DNA of 64,000 nt, taken from the NCBI GenBank assembly GCA_021107435.1, contig JAIOSV010000089.1, forward strand, positions 111,347 through 175,346, given 5' to 3'. The DNA comes from Candidatus Sabulitectum sp. GTDB lineage: Bacteria; Fermentibacterota; Fermentibacteria; Fermentibacterales; JCC-6. The notes under the pieces are model-generated. The model was not told where the DNA came from. It ran no database searches and saw only the letters and a program-made list of their open reading frames with translations. This document shows, piece by piece, positions 1 to 32,772 of this stretch (the first letter of the stretch is position 1; each line of letters starts with the position of its first letter). The translations under genes were made by a program, and so were the position numbers.

Positions 1-119
1 TTCGTTTTCTACAATTGCCCGAACAGTAAGCCAGTCTCCATCGTAGGTTTCGCCATCAGCAGGTTCAGAAATGGTCAGGCTTGCTGAGGAAAGAGCAATC
101 ACAGTAAGAGAAGTAAAGA

Positions 120-833
120 TCAGCATTCGGTTCTCCAGTCAGTTGATAAAAGATATGGATATACGGCAACACAACACCTGTCATCGCCGTCAAAGACAGA
201 TTCAATAACTTCGACTCTCACGGGGGATTCAGTAATGGTTTCCCAGATATTCCGGTAAAAGCCAGCTCCGCACAGGCAGTACTCCACAGGCATTCTTATA
301 CCCTGCTTAACTGCTTTGTTCACTCTGGGGCAATGGCAGTACATTTCTCTTCTTGCCTGTGAATCTTTCTCGCCGATCCATTTTCTGAGATTGCCGCTTT
401 TAGGTATTTTTACTGCGATTATCCGGCTACCATCCAGTACACCGGCCACACCCATTCCCATTTCAAGAAGCTTGTTGACAATCTCCATATCCATGAGCAT
501 ACCGTCTCTCAGTGACTCAACAAACTGCTTCCTCAGTAGGTCAATAGCTTCAGGAAAGCTGCCGCTCTTCCTGAAAGCAGCTCGAACAGAGAGCAGCTTT
601 GCCCTGGGGTAATGACAGGCACAACCTGTAACAACATCATGAAGCTCTACTTCAGAAAGTTCCTCCTTCAGTTTGTTCACTGCTCCTGCGGTCCAGCGCA
701 TTACATTCCCAGGAGCAGTGCTGGAGCTGAACTTTTCAGAACCCTTCATTGCTGCCTTCCTGAATTCCTTACTCTTAACCTCGTCAAGCTGCAGGGAAAG
801 CTTCTCCAGCCACATTCTTTCAAAATCCATCAC
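120..833 (-). CDS. hypothetical Cys-rich protein (CHCP...YCLCGAGF, DGDDRCC motifs)
   Basis: 237-aa ORF with no overlapping real gene. Several Cys clusters suggest metal or redox binding. I do not recognise a family. Confidence 0.4.
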   Translation of the reverse strand: MMDFERMWLEKLSLQLDEVKSKEFRKAAMKGSEKFSSSTAPGNVMRWTAGAVNKLKEELSEVELHDVVTGCACHYPRAKLLSVRAAFRKSGSFPEAIDLLRKQFVESLRDGMLMDMEIVNKLLEMGMGVAGVLDGSRIIAVKIPKSGNLRKWIGEKDSQARREMYCHCPRVNKAVKQGIRMPVEYCLCGAGFYRNIWETITESPVRVEVIESVFDGDDRCCVAVYPYLLSTDWRTEC

Positions 834-1014
834 TCCCTGCCTTTTTGTGAAATGAGTGTCATACTCCCAATTTATTGATAATATGGGATATCAGGCAAAA
901 CTGCAATGTTTCATGCGAAACCATTCAGGGCTTTCGGAGCGCATTTCCTTGACTGCGGCAACATTATGAATTACATTATTGTCGTAACGAGATTTTCGTA
1001 ACGACGGGAATGCA

Positions 1015-2151
1015 ATGAACAATCCATTTTCTTACGGCGGTATTGTCAAGGGAGAAACCTTCTGCAACAGAATCACTGAGCAGAAGGATCTGATAAGAGC
1101 AGTTGAAAACAGTGAAAAACTGTTTATCCACGGGGAAAGACGTATCGGCAAAACATCCTTGCTAAAAGCAGTCATTCAGAAAATTGAGAAAAATAGTGGC
1201 ATCTGCTTCTACATTGATGTGTGGAAGTGCCTTGACGAGGATGACTTTTCCAGAGTCTGCGCAAGTGCCTTTGCGGAATACGCTTTTAAAGAGAAACAGA
1301 GTGTTGTAGAAAGGCTGAAAACTCTTTTTGCCGGCATAACCCCATCATTCAGTGTTGATGAAGCAGGCAAACCGTCTGTGACTTTACTGAGAGCCCGCAG
1401 CGATAAACCGGGACCGTTCGTTGACGAAATCCTAAAGGCTCCACAGCGAGTAAGAGCAATAGAACCTGATCGACCGATTCTGGTTGTTTTTGATGAATTC
1501 CAGCAGATAAGAGAGATCTCAGGGCTGAAACTTGAGCAGATTATAAGAAGCAGAGTCCAGGAGCAGCAGAATGTTGCCTACTTTTTTTGCGGAAGCCGCA
1601 CAAGTCTTTTAAAGAAAATGTTTCTGGAAAAGAGCAGCCCGCTTTACAGAAGTTCCGGGCACTATCCGATAGAATCCATCTCACCCAATCACTGGAAGCC
1701 CTTCATCAAAACTGAATTTACAACCACTGGTAAGAGCATCACTGCTGAGACAATCACTGCGCTGGTTGAAGCAACAGGAGGACATCCTTTTTACACCCAG
1801 ATGCTTTGTTCTTCCCTCTGGGACATTACAGATAACACAGTATCCGTGTCTGATCTGGAAAGCGCAACAGATCTCCTTCTTGATCGTGAAAGCAGCACAT
1901 ACATCACTCTGTGGAACGCACTTCCCGAGCAGCCGAGAAAAATGCTGAGAGCCCTGGCTATGGAAAACCCTCTCTTCAAACCAACTTCAGGAAAAACGGT
2001 GCAAACTCATGGATTCGCGTCACCTTCCTCTTCGAAAAGCGCATTGACCTATCTAATTGACAAAGATCATGCAGCACAGAACAAGGATGGCGGTTACTTT
2101 CTGGTGGACAGGTTCCTTGGGATGTGGTGCCGGCGCAACCTTACTCTGTAA
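1015..2151 (+). CDS. AAA+ ATP-binding protein, archaeal-type ATPase family (PF01637-like; DUF234-type C-terminus)
   Basis: N-terminus FxxRxxEL...LFIHGERRIGKTSLLK contains a Walker A. A DEFQ Walker B-like motif follows at VVFDEFQQIRE. This is typical of the ATPase family 'predominantly from Archaea'. Confidence 0.6.
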   Translation: MNNPFSYGGIVKGETFCNRITEQKDLIRAVENSEKLFIHGERRIGKTSLLKAVIQKIEKNSGICFYIDVWKCLDEDDFSRVCASAFAEYAFKEKQSVVERLKTLFAGITPSFSVDEAGKPSVTLLRARSDKPGPFVDEILKAPQRVRAIEPDRPILVVFDEFQQIREISGLKLEQIIRSRVQEQQNVAYFFCGSRTSLLKKMFLEKSSPLYRSSGHYPIESISPNHWKPFIKTEFTTTGKSITAETITALVEATGGHPFYTQMLCSSLWDITDNTVSVSDLESATDLLLDRESSTYITLWNALPEQPRKMLRALAMENPLFKPTSGKTVQTHGFASPSSSKSALTYLIDKDHAAQNKDGGYFLVDRFLGMWCRRNLTL

Positions 2152-2177
2152 GTGAGATACTGAGAGGTTCCGGCAAT

Positions 2178-2951
2178 TCAGTCCCGCTTTTCGTTCAGGG
2201 ATAGTCCACAGATCCGAAGTGGCTCCAGCAAATCCTCGGGATCAGTACTCCACTGGGCCATTTTACGCGAGATGTGCTCTGTCCAGCTGTAGTTGTCAAA
2301 GGTGAATTTCTCCTCTCTGGCTTTGTCGGAAAGAGGAATCATGAACCCGGCTTTTTTGTAGTAGTTCTGCTCAAGGTAGCCACGATCCATTTGATCCATA
2401 GCTCTTTTTACAGAGTCCTCCGGGAAATCAGGATACTTCTCCTGAAAAAGATGGAATTCCATGGGATAACGGGGCCGCACAGGAGGATCCTCGGCAGGAA
2501 AACCCATGGCAAGGATTACAAGAGGAAACACATGGTCAGGAAGGTTGCAGTCTTCCCGAAGCTTTTCTGACATATAGAGCGCAGATCCAACGAAGCAACT
2601 TCCCATCTCCAGGCTTTCCGCTGCTGTAACCATATTCTGAGCCATATAAGCGGCATCCTGCATACCGAACAGCAAGCTGTGAATATTGGAAGCTTCTCTA
2701 TTCCAGCCGCGTACCTTCATGACCTTTTCCATTCTGTGCAGGTCACATAGGATGATGAACTGAATCGGGGCGTTAAAGGCATTTGTCTCTCTGTTCCTCT
2801 GAATAATCACGCTGCCCAGTTGCATAGCGAAGGGAGCCTGCTGACCGGCCCGGACAATTGTTAGAATTTCTTCTTCGGAGGGAATCTGCTCTGTAAACTC
2901 CCTGATGGATTTCCTGTTCATCAGCGAGTCGATTACTGCGTTTCTTATCAT
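2178..2951 (-). CDS. nitroreductase family protein
   Basis: MIRNAVIDSLMNRKSIREFTEQ is a typical nitroreductase N-terminus. The ORF-track start at 3002 adds 17 unlikely residues, so the start was moved to the internal Met. Confidence 0.7.
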   Translation of the reverse strand: MIRNAVIDSLMNRKSIREFTEQIPSEEEILTIVRAGQQAPFAMQLGSVIIQRNRETNAFNAPIQFIILCDLHRMEKVMKVRGWNREASNIHSLLFGMQDAAYMAQNMVTAAESLEMGSCFVGSALYMSEKLREDCNLPDHVFPLVILAMGFPAEDPPVRPRYPMEFHLFQEKYPDFPEDSVKRAMDQMDRGYLEQNYYKKAGFMIPLSDKAREEKFTFDNYSWTEHISRKMAQWSTDPEDLLEPLRICGLSLNEKRD

Positions 2952-3011
2952 GGTGTCTCCTGACAAGGTAAGGAATACCAATTTGATTGCGCAAATACAC
3001 AATGGATACTA

Positions 3012-4103
3012 TTAAAGTTGCAGCTCCATGACATACACTCGGGGAAAAGAACCTGGGCACATTGTGTAAGCGAGAATCCCGTAGTCTGTTATACCGAAAG
3101 CAATCATCTCATCTCCCGGAAGTCCTTCGCAGGTGCAAGTAAATGCCAATTCTCCGTTCATAGTGTAAACATCAAAGGATGGATTGAACCAGGAACCGTG
3201 GCAAGCCCAGAGACATCCCGTTGAGTTCTGCACTTGCAGGTCAGTTATTCCAGGTTCGTGAGCAGACGGCTCCCAGTTCCCCATATCTCCGTCTCTCAAT
3301 TTTCTCCAGATTTGTTCCATCTCGATCTCATCAGCATCACGCAACTCTTGTTCATGCGGGGCGTAGAGAGTATCAAGTAATACTCCATCCATGGAAAACA
3401 CCAGTACCTTGTAATCCTGGGCGTCCGGTGCGACAAAGACAAGGCCGGAACTACTTGCCACAATAGAGTTCTCAAGTTGAACAAACAAGTCGTATATACT
3501 TTCCAGAGCATCAACTTCAAGATATCTCGAAAACAGAACTCGCTCTTTCCTTCCGCTGACTGTGTTCCACACACATATTTCGTAGCCGATACTGACAGAA
3601 TCGCCCTCTCGATCAATACTCCCGACAAAACCAACCACTGTTGAATTGTCAATAAAGCATGGTTCCTGAAGTGCAGTCATCCCATCAAAAGTCACTGATG
3701 ACACAGGAATAGCCAGATTATCAAAGAAGACACACCTTGGAGGCATGTTGAATTCAAACACCGCAAATCTTGAATCAACTACCGCAAGGTACGCAGCGCA
3801 TCGATACTCAAGAGGTCCGTTACCGCAGTAATTACTTGTAACAATGTAATTGCAGTCTCTATCGAAAACTCGCAATTCCTGATATCCCTTATCAAGGAGG
3901 ACAAATGTGGAATCGTTGATAAATGCAGCACCGGAAATGTTTCCGAATACTTCGTATGGCTCTCCGTAATCCACACCCAGAGAATCCACAACAACCAGCC
4001 GTCTTTCTTCAACGATCCGCTCTGGCCGAGCAGGAGATAACTGGCATGCAAACAAATTCACGATAATGGCAATTACTGCAAATGGAATCAATCGTCTCAT
4101 CAA
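3012..4103 (-). CDS. lipoprotein, hypothetical (beta-rich)
   Basis: Signal peptide MMRRLIPFAVIAIIVNLFAC with lipobox LFAC. No recognisable catalytic motifs. Confidence 0.5.
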   Translation of the reverse strand: MMRRLIPFAVIAIIVNLFACQLSPARPERIVEERRLVVVDSLGVDYGEPYEVFGNISGAAFINDSTFVLLDKGYQELRVFDRDCNYIVTSNYCGNGPLEYRCAAYLAVVDSRFAVFEFNMPPRCVFFDNLAIPVSSVTFDGMTALQEPCFIDNSTVVGFVGSIDREGDSVSIGYEICVWNTVSGRKERVLFSRYLEVDALESIYDLFVQLENSIVASSSGLVFVAPDAQDYKVLVFSMDGVLLDTLYAPHEQELRDADEIEMEQIWRKLRDGDMGNWEPSAHEPGITDLQVQNSTGCLWACHGSWFNPSFDVYTMNGELAFTCTCEGLPGDEMIAFGITDYGILAYTMCPGSFPRVYVMELQL

Positions 4104-23189: not shown

Positions 23190-26100
23190 TCAGAATAGAT
23201 CTACACCATCGTCAACAATAACCCATCGACCGTTCACGAGAACAAGCCTTATTTCCTCGATAGCTCCCTCAAAGGTAACCGGCACAAGGGCAGTTTCTCC
23301 ATTGATTACTGCTTCTCCAATCTCAATCTCCGCACTGCCCAGCATAACCATCACGAATTCATCAATTGCCATGTTCTCTATTTCTTCAGCAGTTATCTCA
23401 ATCCCCCCGGAAGATAATTCTGCAGCCATTTCATCCGGAGCCAGCTTCATCACACGGAGAACCGCGTTGAAGTCAGCAAGCTCTTCTTCGGACAAACCGC
23501 CGAGGATAAATTCACCATCGCTGTTCAGCATCATATCCACAAAGAACGCGACAACTTCCTCCGGCGTTCTCATTACTGCTCTTGCAATACGAAAACCATC
23601 ATTGTAGTAGTGACCTGACAAGAGCGCTACGTTGCGATATGAGCAAAATCTGGGATGTTCAGATGCAAAGCTTCCTCCGCGAAGAACGCGATTGCCGCTT
23701 GAACCTGCAAATGCGCTGCCATCCACGGGACAATCGCTTAAGTCAGCCGTGTACACATCTTCGCACCACTCGGAAACATTACCCAGGATATCGTATAGAC
23801 CCCATGCGTTGGGTTCGAGAAGCCCCACCGGATGAGTGCTGTTATCGGAGCTACCGGCATGCCAGCAATAGAGTTTCACCACTCTCTCTGAAAAACTGTC
23901 GCCCCAGTAGTATCCGGTAGTTGTTCCAGCCCTGCAGGCATACTCCCACTCTAACTCTGTTGGTAATCTGTAAGCTGAGTTCTGATCCATGCTGTTCATT
24001 GCAACGACAAAGTTCTGACATTCATTCCAGGTTACATCGTGCACAGGATTGAGTGGTCCCACACCATAGTTGCTACCGCTGTTATGGTTCTCATTCATAA
24101 CTTCCTTCCACATGCCCTGTGTAACCTCGGTGGTCATAAGCTCAAAGCTGTCTATCTGAACAAGACGCTGCTCTTCCTCACCCATCATGAAACTTCCGGA
24201 AGGTATGGTTACAAATTCCATGCCGCTTACCGGTCCGGTGCGCCCAAAGGTCAAACCCCGTGCGTCAGCCCATCCGAAATGATCAGCAGCATCGGTTACC
24301 CTGATCCGGCATTCAGATCCTCCAAGGTTGTATTCAGCTGGAACGGAAGTATTCTGAAGGCTGAAGCTGCCGTTGTTATCTATCCACCCGGAAAGATCTG
24401 ATACCGATGTAACGCCGTCGTAAAGCTCAACTTTGACTGAGTCCGAACCGCCTGTCCATTCAATTGTCTTCCCGTCAACAGTTACAGGAAGAGAGCCTAT
24501 CTCAAACTCCTCGCTCCAGCCGAGAACTCCCTGATCATCAACAATGCGAATCCGGAAACCGGAACCTGTTCCCCATCTGGAAGGTATGCAGGCTTGCCTT
24601 ACCTCCGAGTCGTTATTGTTTACCCATCCGCAGAAATCGCCCATGAATCTGTCATTCCTGTAAACGTCACATTTCACGCGCTCACCTGGAAATCCTTCCC
24701 AGGCAACAGTAGCTTCCGTCGTTCCGGTTGACCAGCAGGCAGTTCCATCAGGATCTGTAACAACAGCCCGTGAGTATATTCCGAATTCATTCTTACTGTA
24801 TTCATCACCGGCACTGTCGATCACTATAACAGGGGTGTCCGGCCCTCTTTCCCAGCTTTCAGAATCCGTTGGGATTATTGCTCTGAGAAGCACCATTTGA
24901 TCTGATAAAGAATCAGAGCCGATAATAAGAAATTCATTCTCGGAAGAGTTTATCTCAACAATACTACTGAATAAATCTGTGAGATCAAGGTCAAGTACCA
25001 TCATTTTCTGTAGAACTCCAGTTTCGCTGAAAACAGCGATGAACGGCTGCTTCCGGCCCCAGACTGTATAGTATTGGCCTTCTGGAAAAATGCTGATCGC
25101 TGTTGCACCAACTGCGTATATCAGGCCCGAAGATATCTCTATTGCATCGTAAACGCAGGCCTCTCCCAGACCGGCACCGGCAGTTTTCCACAAAGGATTA
25201 CCGGTTTCACCGTCCAGAAAACACACGAAGTAACAATCCGGATCGGTCACCCACTCCTGAACATTGCCACTGACAATAATGTTACCGGCAGATGTCTCTC
25301 TGAAGGACTTGATATGCGGCCAGATCTCACCACTGCCTTCAGACAGATCAAGCAGGTAGGAAGAAGTTATTGAATAGTGAAACAAAGTCTCTCCGTTGGC
25401 TGATATTCGCTGAATCTCTGTAACGTAGTCAAAAGCGTCAGGCGAGCTGCTTACCATATACCCACCACCCGAAAGCTCTGTAACACAAGAAGACCAGTAG
25501 CACTCACTGTCTGTTCCTTCAAGAGAACATGTCCATGCTGTATCCGCCTGCCCGCTGCATGCGATCAGAGACCTTTCTCTCGAACCGTCCAGTGCAGCAG
25601 TAGTCATAATGAGAGGATTACCTGAAACGATCTCTTCGCATGACAGCGGATAGCCGTTGGAATCCGTCTCAACTGTCCACAACTCATCACAGAATGAAAC
25701 CATGTTTCGAGAGAGATGCCTTTGTAGCTGTACTCGATCTCTTCCTGATCCTTCAAACTGACACCTGTCTATCAGTATCGGATTATAGCGCATTGTCTCT
25801 ATGGGACATAAATGCTCCGAAAGAATGTTGATTGTCACCGGATTAACCGGCGACACCGACTCTGCTGTTAATCTCTCCCGGACATACGCCGGAATCTGAC
25901 GGGTCAGTTCACGATCTGTCATCATCTCCAGATAGATGATGTAGTGCCCTCGCGCCTCAGTGGATTCACCAAGAGCCCAGAGAACATCCGCGATGTTGAG
26001 ATGAGCCACCATCCGTTCCGGTTTCAGATCCAGAACTTTTCTCAGAACGATCAGTGATTTGTCAAGATCATCTGTCTGCTCAAGATAGTATGCGTAGTTG

Positions 26101-26873
26101 TTCATGATCATTGCGTATTCGCCCAGATCCATGTATTCCGAATAATCACAATCTACATAGTCCAGACTGTCCGTGAAAGCGGTAAACCATTCTCTGTCGG
26201 TATGAAGAAAACCGGCGAGATCTCCGAACAGACTCACGGCTTTCCCGAAATTACCAGCAGCTCCAGCTTCCCCTGCAGCCCGGTTAACGCTTCTCAGCAG
26301 ACGGACGAACATTTCATCGGAATTGTAGTAGTTTCCCGGGTAGAACATTTCGTTGATCTCGCGTATTGCCTCAGCTATATTTCCCTCTGCCATAAGGCTG
26401 TCTGCTCTCTCCAGAGCCTCCATTGATGGATCACCTGAATAGTATCGCAGACACTCAAGCGATCCGGAATCAATGTTCCACCGGTAACAAACAGCATGGT
26501 AGCTTGCACTGTATGGCATCTGAAAAAACAGACGGATCTCGTCTTCCTCTTCGAAGTATCTTGAATCTGACTTCGCGAAGTTGTAGTTCCCCCTGTAGCT
26601 GCTGGTACCCAGAAGAAGAGGAATATCACTGTCATGGGTTTTCCCCAGCAGATATATGTCCAGCGAGTCCCGCTCAACTTCAATACCCGTTATCAGCAGC
26701 TCATAGATACCATTCGGAAGGTTGCCGGTATCAAAATGATACACTATCGGCAGGACTGTTCGAGAGACTGTATTCCAGTGTTCCAGTAACTCACCGGTAA
26801 TCGGTTTATAGTCAATCCGGCCAAAGGAAATAGACGCTGCGAGAAAAAGAATAGGAATAAGTGTTCTCCTCAT
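23190..26873 (-). CDS. large secreted multidomain protein: N-terminal TPR-like region, beta-rich middle, FGE-sulfatase (SUMF1/EgtB/PvdO-type) domain, acidic C-terminal tail
   Basis: Signal peptide MRRTLIPILFLAASISFG. The FGE-sulfatase domain is recognisable around residues ~840-1090 (EFVTIPSGSFMMGEEE..., WEYACRAGTTT..YWG, LRGGSF). It is 1227 aa. Confidence 0.7.
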   Translation of the reverse strand: MRRTLIPILFLAASISFGRIDYKPITGELLEHWNTVSRTVLPIVYHFDTGNLPNGIYELLITGIEVERDSLDIYLLGKTHDSDIPLLLGTSSYRGNYNFAKSDSRYFEEEDEIRLFFQMPYSASYHAVCYRWNIDSGSLECLRYYSGDPSMEALERADSLMAEGNIAEAIREINEMFYPGNYYNSDEMFVRLLRSVNRAAGEAGAAGNFGKAVSLFGDLAGFLHTDREWFTAFTDSLDYVDCDYSEYMDLGEYAMIMNNYAYYLEQTDDLDKSLIVLRKVLDLKPERMVAHLNIADVLWALGESTEARGHYIIYLEMMTDRELTRQIPAYVRERLTAESVSPVNPVTINILSEHLCPIETMRYNPILIDRCQFEGSGRDRVQLQRHLSRNMVSFCDELWTVETDSNGYPLSCEEIVSGNPLIMTTAALDGSRERSLIACSGQADTAWTCSLEGTDSECYWSSCVTELSGGGYMVSSSPDAFDYVTEIQRISANGETLFHYSITSSYLLDLSEGSGEIWPHIKSFRETSAGNIIVSGNVQEWVTDPDCYFVCFLDGETGNPLWKTAGAGLGEACVYDAIEISSGLIYAVGATAISIFPEGQYYTVWGRKQPFIAVFSETGVLQKMMVLDLDLTDLFSSIVEINSSENEFLIIGSDSLSDQMVLLRAIIPTDSESWERGPDTPVIVIDSAGDEYSKNEFGIYSRAVVTDPDGTACWSTGTTEATVAWEGFPGERVKCDVYRNDRFMGDFCGWVNNNDSEVRQACIPSRWGTGSGFRIRIVDDQGVLGWSEEFEIGSLPVTVDGKTIEWTGGSDSVKVELYDGVTSVSDLSGWIDNNGSFSLQNTSVPAEYNLGGSECRIRVTDAADHFGWADARGLTFGRTGPVSGMEFVTIPSGSFMMGEEEQRLVQIDSFELMTTEVTQGMWKEVMNENHNSGSNYGVGPLNPVHDVTWNECQNFVVAMNSMDQNSAYRLPTELEWEYACRAGTTTGYYWGDSFSERVVKLYCWHAGSSDNSTHPVGLLEPNAWGLYDILGNVSEWCEDVYTADLSDCPVDGSAFAGSSGNRVLRGGSFASEHPRFCSYRNVALLSGHYYNDGFRIARAVMRTPEEVVAFFVDMMLNSDGEFILGGLSEEELADFNAVLRVMKLAPDEMAAELSSGGIEITAEEIENMAIDEFVMVMLGSAEIEIGEAVINGETALVPVTFEGAIEEIRLVLVNGRWVIVDDGVDLF

Positions 26874-26961
26874 GTGAATGCCTCCTTGAATTGTTGTGTA
26901 ACAATCTGCTAATTAATTCGAGGCTCAGAGTCAAGTACTGCTTTGCGGCACCTGCATGCCA

Positions 26962-27001
26962 TGTCATTGACCGAACAGAGTATCAGGCATTATCATGTAA
27001 T
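26962..27001 (+). promoter_or_regulatory. conserved upstream element copy 1 (TTGACC-N18-TATCAT promoter-like)
   Basis: 40 nt identical to 28503-28542: tgtcattgaccgaacagagtatcaggcattatcatgtaat. It lies ~80 nt upstream of the first TPR paralog. Confidence 0.35.
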
Positions 27002-27075
27002 ACAGTGGAAAATTAATAGAAAAAGGGAAAGGAACTATTGCATGGAAAAACTGTATCCTGACTCTTCGGATTCCC

Positions 27076-28257
27076 ATGGCTGAATCTTTTGAGAACAAAA
27101 ACCTGGAAATCCTGCTGAAAAAGCTTCCTGATACTGAAGGGCCGCAGCAAATTGAGCTTCTCGCCGATTTAACTGTAGCCTTCAGGGAAATAAATCCCGA
27201 GAAAGTAATTGAATTCGGGAAACAGGGGCTGGAACTGCTTCAGGACAGCAAAGAGAAGAAACTGAAATTAGTTATTCTGAATGAGATCTGCAGGGCATAT
27301 CATTACCTTAGCAAATACCAGACTTCGCTGGAATACGGCTTTAAAGCACTTGAACTATCTAATGCAAGCAATGATGATCTACACAAGGCAACCGCTATAA
27401 ACAGAATTGGCACGACATACCTGAATATGGCATTATTTAATCAAGCTCTTGAGTGTTTCATGCAGGCTCTTAAAATATATGAAAACATCGGTGACAAACG
27501 TGGCATCGCAGGATTGTACATTAATATTGGATTGGTCTGCAGTAAAATAGGCGACCGCGAAAAGGCTCTGGAGTATTACAGCAAAGCAATGAGAACACTT
27601 AAAGAAGTAAATGACAAAAGAAGTCTTGCCATCCTGTATAATAATATTGGTAGCATTTACAATGATTCAAAGGAACATAAAACGGCTCTGGAGTATTTTA
27701 GGAAAGCACTTGAAATCAAGAAAAAAATCGGTGAGAAGTTTAGAATAGCTCACACCTTAACCAATATCGGCACAGTATATATGGATACCGAAAATTATGA
27801 AAAATCGTTGGAATACTTTTTTCAATCACTCAATATCCAGGAAGAAATCCGTGATGAGTATGCTTCTGTTGAAACACTCCGCAATATTGGTTATTCCTAC
27901 GCTTCGACTGATAGGATTGCTGAAGCTGTTAAATATATACAGCAAGGACTTTCAATTGCGAAAGCACTTAAAGTACCTGATCTGATAATGAGTTGTTATG
28001 AATCCTTTTCGGCTATCTACAAAAAAAAGAAAGATTTCAAGAAAGCATTTGAATACTACAAACAGTTCAAGAAACTTGATGATGAGATATTCACAAAGGA
28101 AAGCAGCAGGAAATTCAACGAACTCCAGATAAGCTACGAAACAGAAAAGAAGGAAAAGGAGAGTGAGATTTACAGGCTCAGGAATATCGAACTGGTAAAA
28201 ACAAATGAGAATCTGACAAAAGCTCTTGCTGAAATAAAAACACTGTTCTTCATGTAA
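27076..28257 (+). CDS. TPR-repeat protein, paralog 1 (C-terminal Cys4 tail is out of frame; possible pseudogene or frameshift)
   Basis: About nine TPR-like repeats then a coiled-coil segment (ETEKKEKESEIYRLRNIELV). The ORF stops at 28257. The +1 frame from the A5 run at 28236-28240 reads KHCSSCKKIRDDSGYWEQIEEYIAERSDTQFSHGICPECEKNLYTELTNLNK* to 28396. A hairpin (28395-28415) follows. Confidence 0.65.
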   Translation: MAESFENKNLEILLKKLPDTEGPQQIELLADLTVAFREINPEKVIEFGKQGLELLQDSKEKKLKLVILNEICRAYHYLSKYQTSLEYGFKALELSNASNDDLHKATAINRIGTTYLNMALFNQALECFMQALKIYENIGDKRGIAGLYINIGLVCSKIGDREKALEYYSKAMRTLKEVNDKRSLAILYNNIGSIYNDSKEHKTALEYFRKALEIKKKIGEKFRIAHTLTNIGTVYMDTENYEKSLEYFFQSLNIQEEIRDEYASVETLRNIGYSYASTDRIAEAVKYIQQGLSIAKALKVPDLIMSCYESFSAIYKKKKDFKKAFEYYKQFKKLDDEIFTKESSRKFNELQISYETEKKEKESEIYRLRNIELVKTNENLTKALAEIKTLFFM

Positions 28258-28502
28258 AAAAATCCGTGATGACTCCGGATACTGGGAACAGATAGAAGAA
28301 TACATAGCAGAGCGTTCAGACACTCAGTTCAGTCACGGGATCTGTCCTGAATGCGAGAAGAATCTTTATACTGAATTGACTAATCTCAACAAGTGAGACC
28401 CCTCTTCAGGGTCTCCAACGGGAGTAGACTGCATTTCCTGAAGCTGATATTGGACGATCAGGCTCTACTGGGGCAATGTCTGTCCTGAAGTGAGACTTGG
28501 TA

Positions 28503-28542
28503 CTGTCATTGACCGAACAGAGTATCAGGCATTATCATGTAA
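28503..28542 (+). promoter_or_regulatory. conserved upstream element copy 2 (TTGACC-N18-TATCAT promoter-like)
   Basis: Identical 40-mer ~125 nt upstream of the second TPR paralog. Confidence 0.35.
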
Positions 28543-28664
28543 TCAAGTTGAGAACTCAATGTAAAAGGCAATTGAAAAACAATACCGGAATCACATTTCG
28601 ATATTATCAGATATCCAGTTTCTTCGCTCTGCGGGAAGATAGCTGTTCCTGAAATAGTGATGGA

Positions 28665-30002
28665 GTGCATGACATGCCGAATGAAGAAATTATTAAGCTG
28701 GAAAATGAACTGGAAAAACTCAGACTGGAATCTCCTGGTTTAGAACTCACGGTTACGCTGAATAAACTTGCTTATGCCTGTCTCCATTCGGATCCACGCA
28801 CCGCGGAAGTGCACGCTCTGGAAGCACAGTCCCTTTCGATAAATCTGGGATTTCCTGTAGAGCTGGCAAAAAGCGACACTACGCTTGGAAGGATTAATCA
28901 GGAGGCAGGTAATTTCCCTGAGGCAATGTCGTATTGCCGGAAGTCAATGAATATCTATGAAGAACTCCGGGACGGGAACGGGATGGCATCTGTTAATGGT
29001 ACACTGGCAGCCATATACTGGTCCCAGGGCATGATTGACAAAGCTCTTGAGCACTTCCTCGAATCTCTCAGGCAAAAACAGGAATGTGATGCCAGCCATG
29101 ATGAACTTGCCAACTGCCACTTCAACATAGGCTCATGCTACTGCAGCCTGAACCGTTTTGATCTGGCGCAGGCATCCTATGAATACGTGCTGAAAATATG
29201 GGAAAAGTCAGGAGAACTCGAGAATCTGGCATACATCTACAACAACATCGGCACTCTCTATGGGAAAAAGAAAGAGCTGGACAAGGCTCGTGAGTACTTC
29301 CAGAAAGCTCTTGATTTCAGAAAGGATCTGGGAGATAAAAAAGGCATGGCAAGCACTCTCAGCAATCTGGGAAGTCTGCATAAAGATCTCGGCGATAATG
29401 AATCAGCTCTGAGCTTCTACAACAGAAGCCTCGAACTGTATGAGGAGATCGGCAACCAAAGAGGAGTTGCCTATACATGCGGGTGTGCGGGTGGGATATA
29501 CACTGCCCTGGGAAGCCTTGACAAAGCTGAAGAAACTATCATCAGAGGCCTGGAGATAACAAGAAAGCTAAAGATACAGGATTGGGAGATCCACTGCCTG
29601 GAGATGATAACAGACCTGTACGAAGCGAAAGGAGATCTGCAAAAGGCACTGATGTACTCCCAGGAATTGAACATACGAACAAAAGAGAATCTGAACGAAA
29701 AAAGTCTGGAAAAGATCGCAAGGCTTCAGGTACAATTCGAAACCGAGAAGAAGGAAAATGAAGCTGAGATTTATCGTTTGAAAAACGTCGAACTTTCCGG
29801 TATGAATAATCAGCTACGCGAAGCTTTGACTCATGTGAAGAAACTTCAGGGAATGCTTCCTATCTGCGCAAGCTGCAAGAAAATCAGGGATGATGACGGT
29901 TACTGGCAGCAGATTGAGTCTTATATCTCCGATCACTCCGACGCGAAAATCACTCACGGAATGTGCCCCGAGTGTATAACAAAGCTATACGGCGAAGGGT
30001 GA
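28665..30002 (+). CDS. TPR-repeat protein, paralog 2, with intact C-terminal Cys4 (CxxC...CPEC) zinc-ribbon-like tail
   Basis: TPR repeats, then a coiled coil (ETEKKENEAEIYRLKNVELSGMNNQLREAL), then LPICASCKKIRDDDGYWQQIESYISDHSDAKITHGMCPECITKLYGEG. No signal peptide, so it is cytoplasmic. Confidence 0.75.
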   Translation: MHDMPNEEIIKLENELEKLRLESPGLELTVTLNKLAYACLHSDPRTAEVHALEAQSLSINLGFPVELAKSDTTLGRINQEAGNFPEAMSYCRKSMNIYEELRDGNGMASVNGTLAAIYWSQGMIDKALEHFLESLRQKQECDASHDELANCHFNIGSCYCSLNRFDLAQASYEYVLKIWEKSGELENLAYIYNNIGTLYGKKKELDKAREYFQKALDFRKDLGDKKGMASTLSNLGSLHKDLGDNESALSFYNRSLELYEEIGNQRGVAYTCGCAGGIYTALGSLDKAEETIIRGLEITRKLKIQDWEIHCLEMITDLYEAKGDLQKALMYSQELNIRTKENLNEKSLEKIARLQVQFETEKKENEAEIYRLKNVELSGMNNQLREALTHVKKLQGMLPICASCKKIRDDDGYWQQIESYISDHSDAKITHGMCPECITKLYGEG

Positions 30003-30012
30003 TAAGAACAAA

Positions 30013-32772
30013 TCAGAATCTCAGCCTTAAATACATCTCTGAATCCAGTTTCTTCCAACTTTCAACCACAGGCGTGCGGGTGTAATCCAGCGAAGTACCG
30101 AAAACCAGTGAAATCCGTCCAGGCAGATCGAATTCAAGTTCTCCCACTGCATTGGCAACAATTTTAGTCATGTCCTTCGGCGGAAGATAGATACTTCCCG
30201 AAAGCCACAATGAAGGAAACCAGGACACAACACTTGAAGCCCATGTACTCAAAGATGCATAGGCTGTTAACTCATCTGTTCTTCCCTGATCTGTGCTCCA
30301 TTTCGTGTTAACAAGACCCGCTCCGGTTTCCGGAGCAATCCATATCCACGAGGCTGGCCAGCTTTTCCAACCAGCAGCCAGGTAAGAACTCACCTGCCAT
30401 GGACGTACTGTTATAGGCTGCCGATCCCAGCTGGAGCTGGCTCCTGCATATAAATGATCGGTGAGAAAATGTTCTGCGGAAAGAGAAGCCCAGGCAGTCC
30501 TGCGAATATCTTTTCCATCCTTTATCTCCGATCTGGCACTGGTCTCAAAGGAAACGGAACTGCCCATTCGGCCAAAGCTCCTTGAAATGCTACCGCCGCC
30601 GCCGTAGTACTGCTCGTCAATGTTACCGCCTGTGGAAGACAGGTCAATCCAGAGATTCCAGCTGAATGGACTAAAACTCCTTCTTTTAAGCCCTGGATCG
30701 TAGTCCTCACCGCTGATATACCGGAGCCTGCTCTCAGCATAAGAATAGCCCGGTTCTATCCGCAGGGCTTCCAGATACCGATCAAGTGCTCCCTCGGGAT
30801 TTCCGCGGTTTTCCTCAATCAAACCCAGATAGCAGATTGCATAGACTGAAGCAGGATTTCTTTCGACAACTTGCAGAAGAAGCTCTTCAGCTCTTGTCAA
30901 TTGATCATCAAAGAGATGCGCTTCTGCAAGCGATGTTGTCAGTATCTCGTTCCACGGGTAGAAATCATACGCATTTGCAAGCAGCTCAATTGCCTGCTCA
31001 ATCATTTCTTCTTCGTAGTAGTAGTCTGCGATGCTCACGGCAACTTGATAATCGTCTGTTTCCAGCCCTGCCGCCAATTCGTAGCACAGCTTCCTGTCCC
31101 AGTATCTTTCCAGAACCCGGTACAGCTCACCAAGGTTGATGATTTCCCAGGGGGTATCCGGAAGAAACAGAAATGCTCTATCGGCAAAGTCATGAGATAA
31201 TGAAATATAGTGGCCATCATAAGCACTCCACCCGGCAGAAATCCAGGCATCCTGCCACGTGTTCGATATTTCTTCCGAAAGAGAATCCGTGTTTTCTCCT
31301 TTGGTTTCCAGGAGCAGTATCCTTTCTGCTGCGACAACCCCGGAATCCCCGCTTAAAAGCAGATATTGATCAAGGGAAGAAAGCGCCTCATCGGGCTCAC
31401 CGATAATCCGCTGAACTCTGGCAAGGTCAAGCCACATTGAGGAATACTCCTGATCAAGTTCCAGAGCTCTGGAAAAGCAGTGTTCGGCGGAATCAATCAA
31501 TAATTCAGCTACTGCCATGCTGCCGAGTTCCCCCCATATCCATGGATCGCCGTTCTCCAGAACAAAAAGGGCTTCACTGTACCATTCCGCTGCGGTATGG
31601 CTTTCACCACCAATGTTAAAAAGATCTCCTCTGCGCTGCCAGCCGTAAAGGTATTGCGGATCAATTGAAATACTGGTTTCATAAACCTCAGCAGCCTCGG
31701 AATACATTCCTCTGCTTTCAAGCACCCACCCCAGCTCACCGTACAACCATGGTTCAGGATCAAGTTCTATACATTTTCGCAGAGCAGACTCGGCTCCCGG
31801 GAAGTTCTCTTCGGATTCATAGAGAAAAGCAAGTTCCTGCCAGGCCTGCAAGTAGTTTGAATCCAGCAGAACTGCCTGCTCAAGCAGTTCTCTGGCATAA
31901 ATGGGATCTGTATTCAGCCTGAGCTTTGCAAGCTGGAAAAGAGACCAGGGATTGTCGGGAGAAAACTCGAGAGAGCATTGAAAAAAACTGTCTGCGAGAT
32001 CAGGCCTGCCCTGATCCAGCATACAAGACGCAAGTTTGCTCCATGCCCATCCGTATTCCGGTCGGATCTGCAGCACCTCCCTGTAAACTTTGATAGCTTC
32101 TCCGTTCATCTTGATACCCTCAAGAAGGAGACCAAGGGATGAGTAAGTCGGGACTCTTGCGGGGTCCTGCTGAATAACCTCTCTGTAAACAGCTATGGCT
32201 CTGAGGGCATCTCCCGACTCTTCGAGAGCCTGACCATACTGATAGAGAAGGGGAATACAATCCGGCAGGCGTCGTACACCTTCTTCTGAAACAACCAGAG
32301 CATCACCAGTCCTGCCTTCATCAATGAGCGCCATGGACAGAGTGAGCCATGCAGGACCGAATGAAGAATCCGCCCCCAGTGAAGCATTAGAGTGAATCAC
32401 AGCTTCCGCGCTGTTTCCCGTAGAAAGCAGCCAGTAGCTGTATGCCTCGCTGAGAACAGCATCAGTACCAATAGCAAGTCGAAAGGCTTTCGAGAACAGG
32501 CTATCCATTATGGTTGAATCCTGCCGCATCCCCACAAAGGCAAGGGCCGTCCATGTTCTGTAGTCTGTACTGTCCAGCGCAACAGCTTCCCCGGCAGTTC
32601 TCAACGGATCTCCTGTACCGTTTCCAAACTGTGAAATAGCTTTCACTGCGAGATCGACAGCTGAATCGCCATATCGGGAGGATACACGCTCCATGTTGTC
32701 CCAGTTCAACTGAGAGTATTCCTGATACCAGTCTACAGGCCAGGCGGACAACAATGTCAGTAGGAAAATCAA
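30013..32772 (-). CDS. outer-membrane protein: periplasmic TPR array plus C-terminal beta-barrel (PgaA/BcsC/PelB-like architecture)
   Basis: Signal peptide MIFLLTLLSAWPVDW. About 650 aa of TPR-like helical repeats. The last ~250 aa show an alternating hydrophobic pattern and end in ...EMYLRLRF. The terminal aromatic is typical of beta-barrel OMPs. Confidence 0.55.
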   Translation of the reverse strand: MIFLLTLLSAWPVDWYQEYSQLNWDNMERVSSRYGDSAVDLAVKAISQFGNGTGDPLRTAGEAVALDSTDYRTWTALAFVGMRQDSTIMDSLFSKAFRLAIGTDAVLSEAYSYWLLSTGNSAEAVIHSNASLGADSSFGPAWLTLSMALIDEGRTGDALVVSEEGVRRLPDCIPLLYQYGQALEESGDALRAIAVYREVIQQDPARVPTYSSLGLLLEGIKMNGEAIKVYREVLQIRPEYGWAWSKLASCMLDQGRPDLADSFFQCSLEFSPDNPWSLFQLAKLRLNTDPIYARELLEQAVLLDSNYLQAWQELAFLYESEENFPGAESALRKCIELDPEPWLYGELGWVLESRGMYSEAAEVYETSISIDPQYLYGWQRRGDLFNIGGESHTAAEWYSEALFVLENGDPWIWGELGSMAVAELLIDSAEHCFSRALELDQEYSSMWLDLARVQRIIGEPDEALSSLDQYLLLSGDSGVVAAERILLLETKGENTDSLSEEISNTWQDAWISAGWSAYDGHYISLSHDFADRAFLFLPDTPWEIINLGELYRVLERYWDRKLCYELAAGLETDDYQVAVSIADYYYEEEMIEQAIELLANAYDFYPWNEILTTSLAEAHLFDDQLTRAEELLLQVVERNPASVYAICYLGLIEENRGNPEGALDRYLEALRIEPGYSYAESRLRYISGEDYDPGLKRRSFSPFSWNLWIDLSSTGGNIDEQYYGGGGSISRSFGRMGSSVSFETSARSEIKDGKDIRRTAWASLSAEHFLTDHLYAGASSSWDRQPITVRPWQVSSYLAAGWKSWPASWIWIAPETGAGLVNTKWSTDQGRTDELTAYASLSTWASSVVSWFPSLWLSGSIYLPPKDMTKIVANAVGELEFDLPGRISLVFGTSLDYTRTPVVESWKKLDSEMYLRLRF

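Follow-up and report, generated by a model that had tools for sequence, protein, structure and literature searches.

What is the four-cysteine (Cys4) tail that ends two adjacent genes for TPR (tetratricopeptide repeat) proteins in a Candidatus Sabulitectum genome, and what put it out of frame in the first of them? The locus lies in a stretch of 64,000 nucleotides (nt) of contig JAIOSV010000089.1 (assembly GCA_021107435.1, positions 111,347 to 175,346, forward strand), hereafter the window, to which all coordinates refer. The features on which both questions turn are as follows, the tail family being represented by hidden Markov models (HMMs) and AlphaFold2 confidence by the predicted local distance difference test (pLDDT).

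27076-28257, + strand: paralog 1, truncated allele (open reading frame 1, ORF1), 393 residues, comprising the TPR array and the larger part of the coiled coil.
28135-28242, + strand: helical linker (coiled coil) of paralog 1, YETEKKEKESEIYRLRNIELVKTNENLTKALAEIKT, which aligns with the paralog 2 linker.
28242/28243, + strand: deletion junction in paralog 1, where 20 nt (CTCAGCGGACTACTTCCGAT, encoding part of T-L-S-G-L-L-P-I) are absent relative to a second assembly, L001, with a 2-nt CT microhomology.
28238-28396, + strand: out-of-frame remnant of the paralog 1 Cys4 tail, in the +1 frame and without a start codon of its own.
28674-30002, + strand: paralog 2, intact, 442 residues from its ATG, with TPR array, coil and Cys4 tail.
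29736-29843, + strand: helical linker of paralog 2, FETEKKENEAEIYRLKNVELSGMNNQLREALTHVKK, modelled by AlphaFold2 as a helix (residues 2-36 of an 88-residue segment, pLDDT 84-92).
29844-29999, + strand: Cys4 tail of paralog 2, LQGMLPICASCKKIRDDDGYWQQIESYISDHSDAKITHGMCPECITKLYGEG, recognised by its family HMM match, its invariant residues and its AlphaFold2 model.

A first-pass annotation, made from the letters of the window, described the pair as tandem cytoplasmic TPR paralogs with a shared architecture of TPR array, coiled coil and Cys4 tail, and this description holds. The two proteins are homologous across all three parts (BLASTP 2e-69, 34% identity), and both classify as TPR repeat proteins (Pfam TPR_12, TPR_1, TPR_2, TPR_8), with TPR_12 found at 7e-41 (138.7 bits) in paralog 1 and at 4e-42 (142.8 bits) in paralog 2 against a gathering cut-off of 30.1. 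Neither protein contains a signal peptide or membrane segment (maximum Kyte-Doolittle 19-residue means of 0.8 and 1.05), which supports the designation of both as cytoplasmic. The ATG of paralog 2 at 28674 is preceded by a GGAG 8 nt upstream and was chosen in two independent gene calls from two other assemblies, with a GTG at 28665 as the alternative start; the four Cys codons of its tail fall between 29865 and 29975.

The Cys4 tail is a real, discrete and very large domain family with a fixed geometry. The family was defined by HMMs of two alignments (A2 and A6), and a profile of 68 homologues was searched against 1.84 billion representatives, with matches counted as clusters at 50% identity. 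This search returned 24,230 clusters at E<=1e-3, of which 20,164 remain at E<=1e-10 and 7,390 at E<=1e-30, and because the tail alone accounts for about 87 bits, matches below 1e-10 must contain it. The spacing C-x2-C-x29-C-x2-C is kept in 353 of 353 retrieved proteins with zero indels, the chain continues past the last Cys for a median of 15 residues, and the tail is almost always C-terminal and placed after a helical linker. Identity over the module between phyla is 50-70%. Its approximately 50 residues follow the pattern G-x-L-P-I-C-x2-C-K-K-I-R-D-D-x-G-Y-W-...-H-G-x-C-P-x-C, in which G, L, P, I, C, C, K, K, G, W, C and C are invariant in all 68 homologues, and the downstream stretch E-x-Y-I-x-x-H-S-x-A-x-F-S-H-G-x-C-P-x-C-x-x-x-L-Y is invariant or nearly so. 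Both paralog 2 and the remnant of paralog 1 carry the family pattern of Cys spacing, K-K-I-R-D, G-Y-W and H-G-x-C-P-x-C.

None of this is captured by the resources that we searched. Pfam-A, NCBIfam and PADLOC hold nothing for the tail (PADLOC returned generic TPR matches only), phmmer and profile searches of PDB sequences gave chance-level matches, led by a glycerophosphotransferase (E 0.02) and followed by the Rad50 zinc hook (E 0.05, across coil and G-K-C-P-V-C), and tail motif strings and keywords retrieved nothing relevant from the paper library searched. The Cys4 tail is absent from these domain, structure and paper resources, so its carriers are annotated merely as 'PAS domain protein' or 'TPR protein'. 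The initial suggestion of a recurrent but functionally unassigned C-terminal module on signalling proteins in several phyla is thus borne out, on a scale of tens of thousands of clusters.

The position of the tail within its carriers offers a first indication of what it might do. Its partners extend beyond TPR arrays: the 146 best representatives contain PAS (at least 81), MASE6 (16), REC (11) and HAMP (8) domains, and in smaller numbers GAF, PocR, Cache, CHASE, 4HB_MCP and Reg_prop/Y_Y_Y. Every partner domain in this set is of the input or transmitter type, and a known output domain (kinase, cyclase, phosphodiesterase or HTH) occurs in 0 of the 146. The Cys4 tail ends 89 of the 120 best full-length TPR homologues, while other homologues of the TPR-linker part carry HisKA/HATPase_c, a LytS-type His_kinase, GGDEF, SpoIIE, HD or GerE in its place. 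In the PAS proteins the spacing is constrained as well: 94 of 96 junctions have the DIT motif exactly 33 residues upstream of P-I-C. From these arrangements we conclude that the Cys4 tail takes the place of an output domain where a rigid helical transmitter ends.

Two complete sensor-linker-tail units occur within one chain in 26 of the 353 proteins, as MASE6-tail or REC-tail duplications. Tandem or fused examples include P0121, P0122, P0125 and P0126 as well as the loci L004 (3596-6290), L006 and L003. Such arrangements hint that neighbouring tail-bearing paralogs may work together, for example as heterodimers.

Short proteins of 70-150 residues that consist of a coil and a tail were also considered as stand-alone forms of the module, and the two examined proved to be fragments of PAS-tail genes. 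One (L034) owes its form to a frameshift, and the genes next to it in the contig are broken up too. In the other (L035/L036, 4705-5288), a fragment of an IS3-type transposase OrfA (HTH_Tnp_1) borders on what is left of a PAS-tail gene and overlaps it, an arrangement that is identical in two independent assemblies; we rejected a genuine HTH-tail fusion here, and regard the junction as an insertion scar. In the ENA contigs L033 and L034, many genes are broken up into short ORFs that hold pieces of REC, HisKA, HATPase and PAS, as expected of frameshift-rich assemblies, and such assemblies inflate the database count of short 'stand-alone' tail proteins.

In the AlphaFold2 model of the linker and tail of paralog 2 (88 residues, pLDDT 80), a long helix leads into a strand that has the first CxxC at its end; a second helix (Y-W-Q-Q-I-E-S-Y-I-S-D-H) and a short strand follow, and the second pair, C-P-E-C, opens a terminal helix at residues 78-85. 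The predicted arrangement is treble-clef-like, and 'zinc ribbon' would describe it only approximately. Thus, from the original label of a zinc-ribbon-like tail the Cys4 pattern stands and the ribbon does not, as no zinc-ribbon Pfam family matches at E<=1 and the second Cys pair sits at a helix start. Other known classes fit no better. The ZAS anti-sigma motif H-x3-C-x2-C differs from the H-x2-C-x2-C of the tail (H-G-M-C-P-E-C), which has no zf-HC2 match. Foldseek searches of the PDB with the linker-tail and tail-only models returned nothing significant (best E approximately 1); the top match of both models is a Fur-family chain with a Zn(Cys)4 site (9a4a_B and 2fe3_B; E 0.98 and 4.7, TM-score 0.21 and 0.36), and we treat this likeness between models and structures as a lead only, the Fur/PerR Zn(Cys)4 dimerisation domain also being absent among the PDB profile matches.

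Placing the two genes in this context, the locus would comprise a tandem pair of genes, each with its own promoter, that encode soluble signalling proteins whose TPR array is the presumed ligand- or partner-binding input. Judging by their invariance and by the AlphaFold2 topology, the four Cys would bind a single metal ion, which is most likely Zn, and the fold would be treble-clef-like. The helical linker would mediate dimerisation, the sensor may alter the relative position of the two tails, and the near-invariant tail surface may touch one shared cellular target, by protein-protein rather than nucleic acid contact. Judged from sequence and model, the Cys4 tail is probably a zinc-binding output module. 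Because its surface residues are near-invariant across phyla and paralogues, the conservation argues for a common partner or ligand over a purely structural cap. Extended to the whole family, the tail could be the effector end of a widespread signalling route in which sensors as varied as PAS, GAF, HAMP, MASE6, Cache, REC and TPR act through a fixed-length helix and one almost uniform 50-residue metal module on one common target or ligand, a proposal that we offer tentatively.

The strongest competitor holds that the tail is a structural Zn(Cys)4 clasp capping a dimeric coiled coil, which would make these proteins TPR or PAS scaffolds without a dedicated output. Such a clasp would agree with the Fur-family chains at the head of the Foldseek matches, with the Rad50 zinc hook as the second-best PDB profile match (coil plus G-x-x-P-x-C) and with the helix that always precedes the tail. 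However, these likenesses are non-significant (Foldseek E 1-5, TM-score 0.2-0.36; HMM E 0.05), a clasp has no need for a near-invariant surface (K-K-I-R-D-D, G-Y-W, E, Y, H-S and F-S-H-G) across phyla and paralogues, and the REC-tail and PAS-tail proteins would be left without any effector. We consider the clasp unlikely.

It is quite unlikely that the Cys4 module is itself a sensor, either as a redox thiol/zinc switch or as a rubredoxin-like Fe or Fe-S site, which would give proteins that occur mostly in anaerobes an additional redox input. The CxxC...CPxC arrangement is reminiscent of rubredoxin-type knuckles, and many of the named matches come from anaerobic lineages (Desulfobacterales, Syntrophales, Anaerolineales, Fermentibacteria and anammox bacteria), a taxonomy that was only loosely sampled. 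Nevertheless, the tail is C-terminal and lies downstream of bona fide sensors and REC domains, which is an output position, and no rubredoxin or Fe-S Pfam family matches it.

A nucleic-acid-binding zinc finger, which would turn the carriers into one-component transcription or RNA regulators, is improbable. The conserved K-K-I-R patch adjoining the first CxxC speaks for it, yet this patch accounts for the only three conserved basic residues and is directly followed by D-D, the tail core is on average acidic (net charge -2.0 +/- 1.5 over 379 tails), and none of DUF164, DksA/TraR or the other DNA- or RNA-binding zinc-finger families of Pfam matches.

The second question, concerning the break in paralog 1, has a more ordinary answer. 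As annotated initially, ORF1 stops at 28257, an A5 run occupies 28236-28240 and a complete homologous tail in the +1 frame ends at 28396. The protein encoded by ORF1 terminates as ...ALAEIKTLFFM*, with three out-of-frame codons before the TAA, and translation of the +1 frame, which opens at 28238 and closes with a TGA at 28394-28396, gives KHCSSCKKIRDDSGYWEQIEEYIAERSDTQFSHGICPECEKNLYTELTNLNK*. When the six-frame translation of the window was searched with the family HMM, two places only were found, namely paralog 2 (1e-40, a score that is partly by construction as its tail is the first row of the HMM's alignment) and the remnant (4e-26), whose match begins exactly at the first Cys with the HMM positions for L-S-G-L-L-P-I missing.

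An exact-protein look-up of paralog 2 led to two other assemblies that encode the identical protein, L001 and L002. The first of these (ENA ERZ26872907, NODE_4854, 3,880 bp, approximately 3.5x coverage) aligns to window positions 27125-30984 at 99.9% identity (BLASTN, 3,860 nt), with three mismatches, two of them at the contig end, and a single 20-nt gap. In L001, paralog 1 is uninterrupted, reading ...AEIKTLSGLLPICSSCKKIRDD... in frame and continuing as ...ALAEIKTLSGLLPICSSCKKIRDD...NLNK. The frameshift attributed to the A5 run is therefore instead a 20-nt deletion at 28242/28243, which removes six and two-thirds codons and changes the frame 2 nt after the run; no copy of these 20 nt is present elsewhere in the window. 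Among the deleted residues is the invariant G-x-L-P-I, which stands before the first Cys and in frame with the linker in paralog 2 and in the L001 allele, and is lost from paralog 1 of the window, where the frame is broken. L-x-G-x-(L/I)-P-I-C is kept by every orthologue and distant relative inspected, and no orthologue is frameshifted. Since the deleted residues are invariant, neither removal of one A nor ribosomal slippage could yield a normal protein: taking out an A does restore a continuous ORF, as first proposed, but its product lacks G-x-L-P-I.

A programmed +1 ribosomal frameshift or an A5-versus-A4 sequencing error, readings invited by the run 2 nt from the junction and by the intact tail ORF in the +1 frame, can be dismissed as extremely improbable, given that a 20-nt gap relative to a near-identical, uninterrupted contig is not a homopolymer slip or miscall, that a shift anywhere in the 17-nt overlap 28238-28254 would produce ...AEIKHCSSCKK... 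without the invariant residues, and that the orthologues and L001 are in frame, so that neither conservation of a shift in relatives nor retention of the conserved sequence in the product was found.

The remnant is nucleotide-identical to the corresponding part of L001, which indicates that the event is either very recent or an assembly artefact, and the interruption of paralog 1 is an ordinary, recent loss-of-function allele with a 20-bp deletion or, less probably, an assembly error. An exact-pattern scan of metagenome and genome contigs, allowing both junction alleles, yielded no further copies. Paralog 2 is intact in three of three assemblies.

In the other assembly (L002/L037, JGI Ga0255383_1657, 1-3206), paralog 2 (100% identity) is fused to fragments of paralog 1 in reverse complement (window 28080 to 27633, 27460-27533 and 27648 to 26589), and both the paralog 1 tail and the downstream gene are missing. 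This contig represents either an inversion variant, and as such a second kind of disruption, or a chimeric assembly. As for the tail-less product of the truncated gene, we can only speculate that it is null or that it interferes by pairing with intact partners.

Taken as a whole, the reading of this locus as tandem TPR signalling genes with a putative Cys4 output module and a deletion allele of paralog 1 has in our estimate a probability of about 0.7. Several points weigh against it. The deletion junction is covered by one other assembly alone, at 3.5x, which bears on whether the deletion is real or an assembly error. The domain census and the 33-residue count were drawn from the best-scoring matches of a profile that includes the linker and are biased towards PAS-type proteins. 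The related loci contain no conserved neighbouring gene that points to a partner, the tail modelled by itself reaches a pLDDT of 68 and hence moderate confidence, and the family may have been described in literature or databases beyond those searched.

The remaining features of the locus lie outside the coding sequences.

26962-27001, + strand: upstream element, copy 1, a 40-nt exact repeat with TTGACC-18-TATCAT, 75 nt before the paralog 1 ATG.
28504-28543, + strand: upstream element, copy 2, the identical 40 nt, 130 nt before the paralog 2 ATG and present in L001 and L002 also.
28395-28415, + strand: hairpin GAGACCC-N7-GGGTCTC after the tail stop codon (7 bp, -11.5 kcal/mol).

The 40-nt element occurs in two copies only in the window, where none is expected by chance, and the similarity extends over 73 nt at 84% identity. 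It holds the best sigma-70-like match of the region (10 of 12 positions) and contains a mini-palindrome, GTCA-T-TGAC. The element is identical upstream of both genes, yet the encoded proteins are just 34% identical, which suggests that the two genes either share a promoter/operator under selection or have undergone gene conversion. A search of orthologous loci at up to 10 mismatches found no copy and loose resemblance only, and a contig scan with the element returned the L002 contig alone. The hairpin after 28396 was initially called terminator-like. It does exist, but it has no U tract, its stability is unexceptional relative to shuffled sequence (z = -0.25) and a terminator scan found 0 sites, such that it is not convincing as an intrinsic terminator. 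Rfam has no RNA family within 26800-30300.

Base composition also differs along the locus. The GC content of paralog 1 (27076-28396) is 37.6%, or 40.7% at third codon positions, compared with 46.2% for paralog 2, 48-50% for the flanking genes and 47.3% for the window; the AT-rich paralog 1 may have a foreign origin or a different evolutionary history. On the minus strand, the pair is flanked by genes for a 1,227-residue protein with a C-terminal FGE-sulfatase (SUMF1-like) domain (23190-26873) and a 919-residue multi-TPR protein (30013-32772), and the flanks also encode BacA and an amino-acid kinase. At related TPR-tail loci in other metagenome-assembled genomes (MAGs), homologues of these flanking genes are absent, and synteny is not conserved.

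The closest relatives of the two proteins, at 61-64% identity at best, are found in MAGs of Candidatus Fermentibacteria, Aegiribacteria and Sabulitectum. These genomes encode many TPR-linker-tail proteins, most of the 89 sampled having 440-460 residues, and the genes are often arranged in tandem or at several loci per genome (as at L003, L004 and L006). The TPR-linker-tail family is thus an expanded one in Fermentibacteria and Aegiribacteria.

What gives the locus its wider relevance is the tail. The frameshift is unremarkable: either a strain-level deletion or an error of assembly, it affects one paralog of the pair. In contrast, the proteins of more than 20,000 clusters (50% identity) from many phyla end in one apparently rigid Cys4 module, at a place where kinases, cyclases and DNA-binding domains normally sit. 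Once the binding target of the tail is found, a large class of sensors, carried by sulfate reducers, syntrophs, Fermentibacteria and other environmental lineages, would gain an assigned output, and the target could also reveal a new signalling hub.

Comparison with known systems places the tail among several architectures and sets it apart from each. Helicobacter pylori FlgZ/HP0958 (DUF164), DksA/TraR and the Rad50 zinc hook share with it a long helix or coil followed by a small Cys-ligated metal site, which in the tail is predicted. However, Pfam detects neither DUF164 nor zf-dskA_traR in the tail, and Rad50 contributes one CxxC per chain; the likeness is architectural only. The Zn(Cys)4 site of Fur/PerR likewise has two CxxC pairs and a strand-helix-strand order. 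Its Cys pairs are spaced by approximately 36 residues in PerR, as against 29 in the Cys4 tail, and the tail proteins differ further in having no DNA-binding domain and no sequence-profile match to this family, with a TM-score of at most 0.36.

The relationship to TPR sensor histidine kinases is closer, as Porphyromonas FimS (NCBIfam NF053520) shares the homologous TPR array and the ETEKKE-type helical segment, with residues 164-382 of paralog 2 aligning to FimS positions 139-354 (2.6e-26). Neither paralog is a FimS-type kinase, the score of 92 bits being far from the 600-bit cut-off and HisKA/HATPase_c being absent from both. Where TPR kinases and TPR-GGDEF, TPR-SpoIIE, TPR-HD and TPR-LuxR proteins carry their output, the paralogs of the window have no known output domain and present the Cys4 tail instead. 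Proteins with PAS, GAF, HAMP or REC domains and an S-helix-type linker show the same inputs and the same succession of PAS DIT motif and fixed-length helix, an arrangement known from PAS-kinase and PAS-GGDEF proteins; unlike in those signalling proteins, the helix here ends in a 50-residue Cys4 module and not in a recognised enzymatic or binding domain. If the tail is indeed an effector end with a common target, its organization would resemble that of chemoreceptors, many of which share one common, conserved signalling tip.

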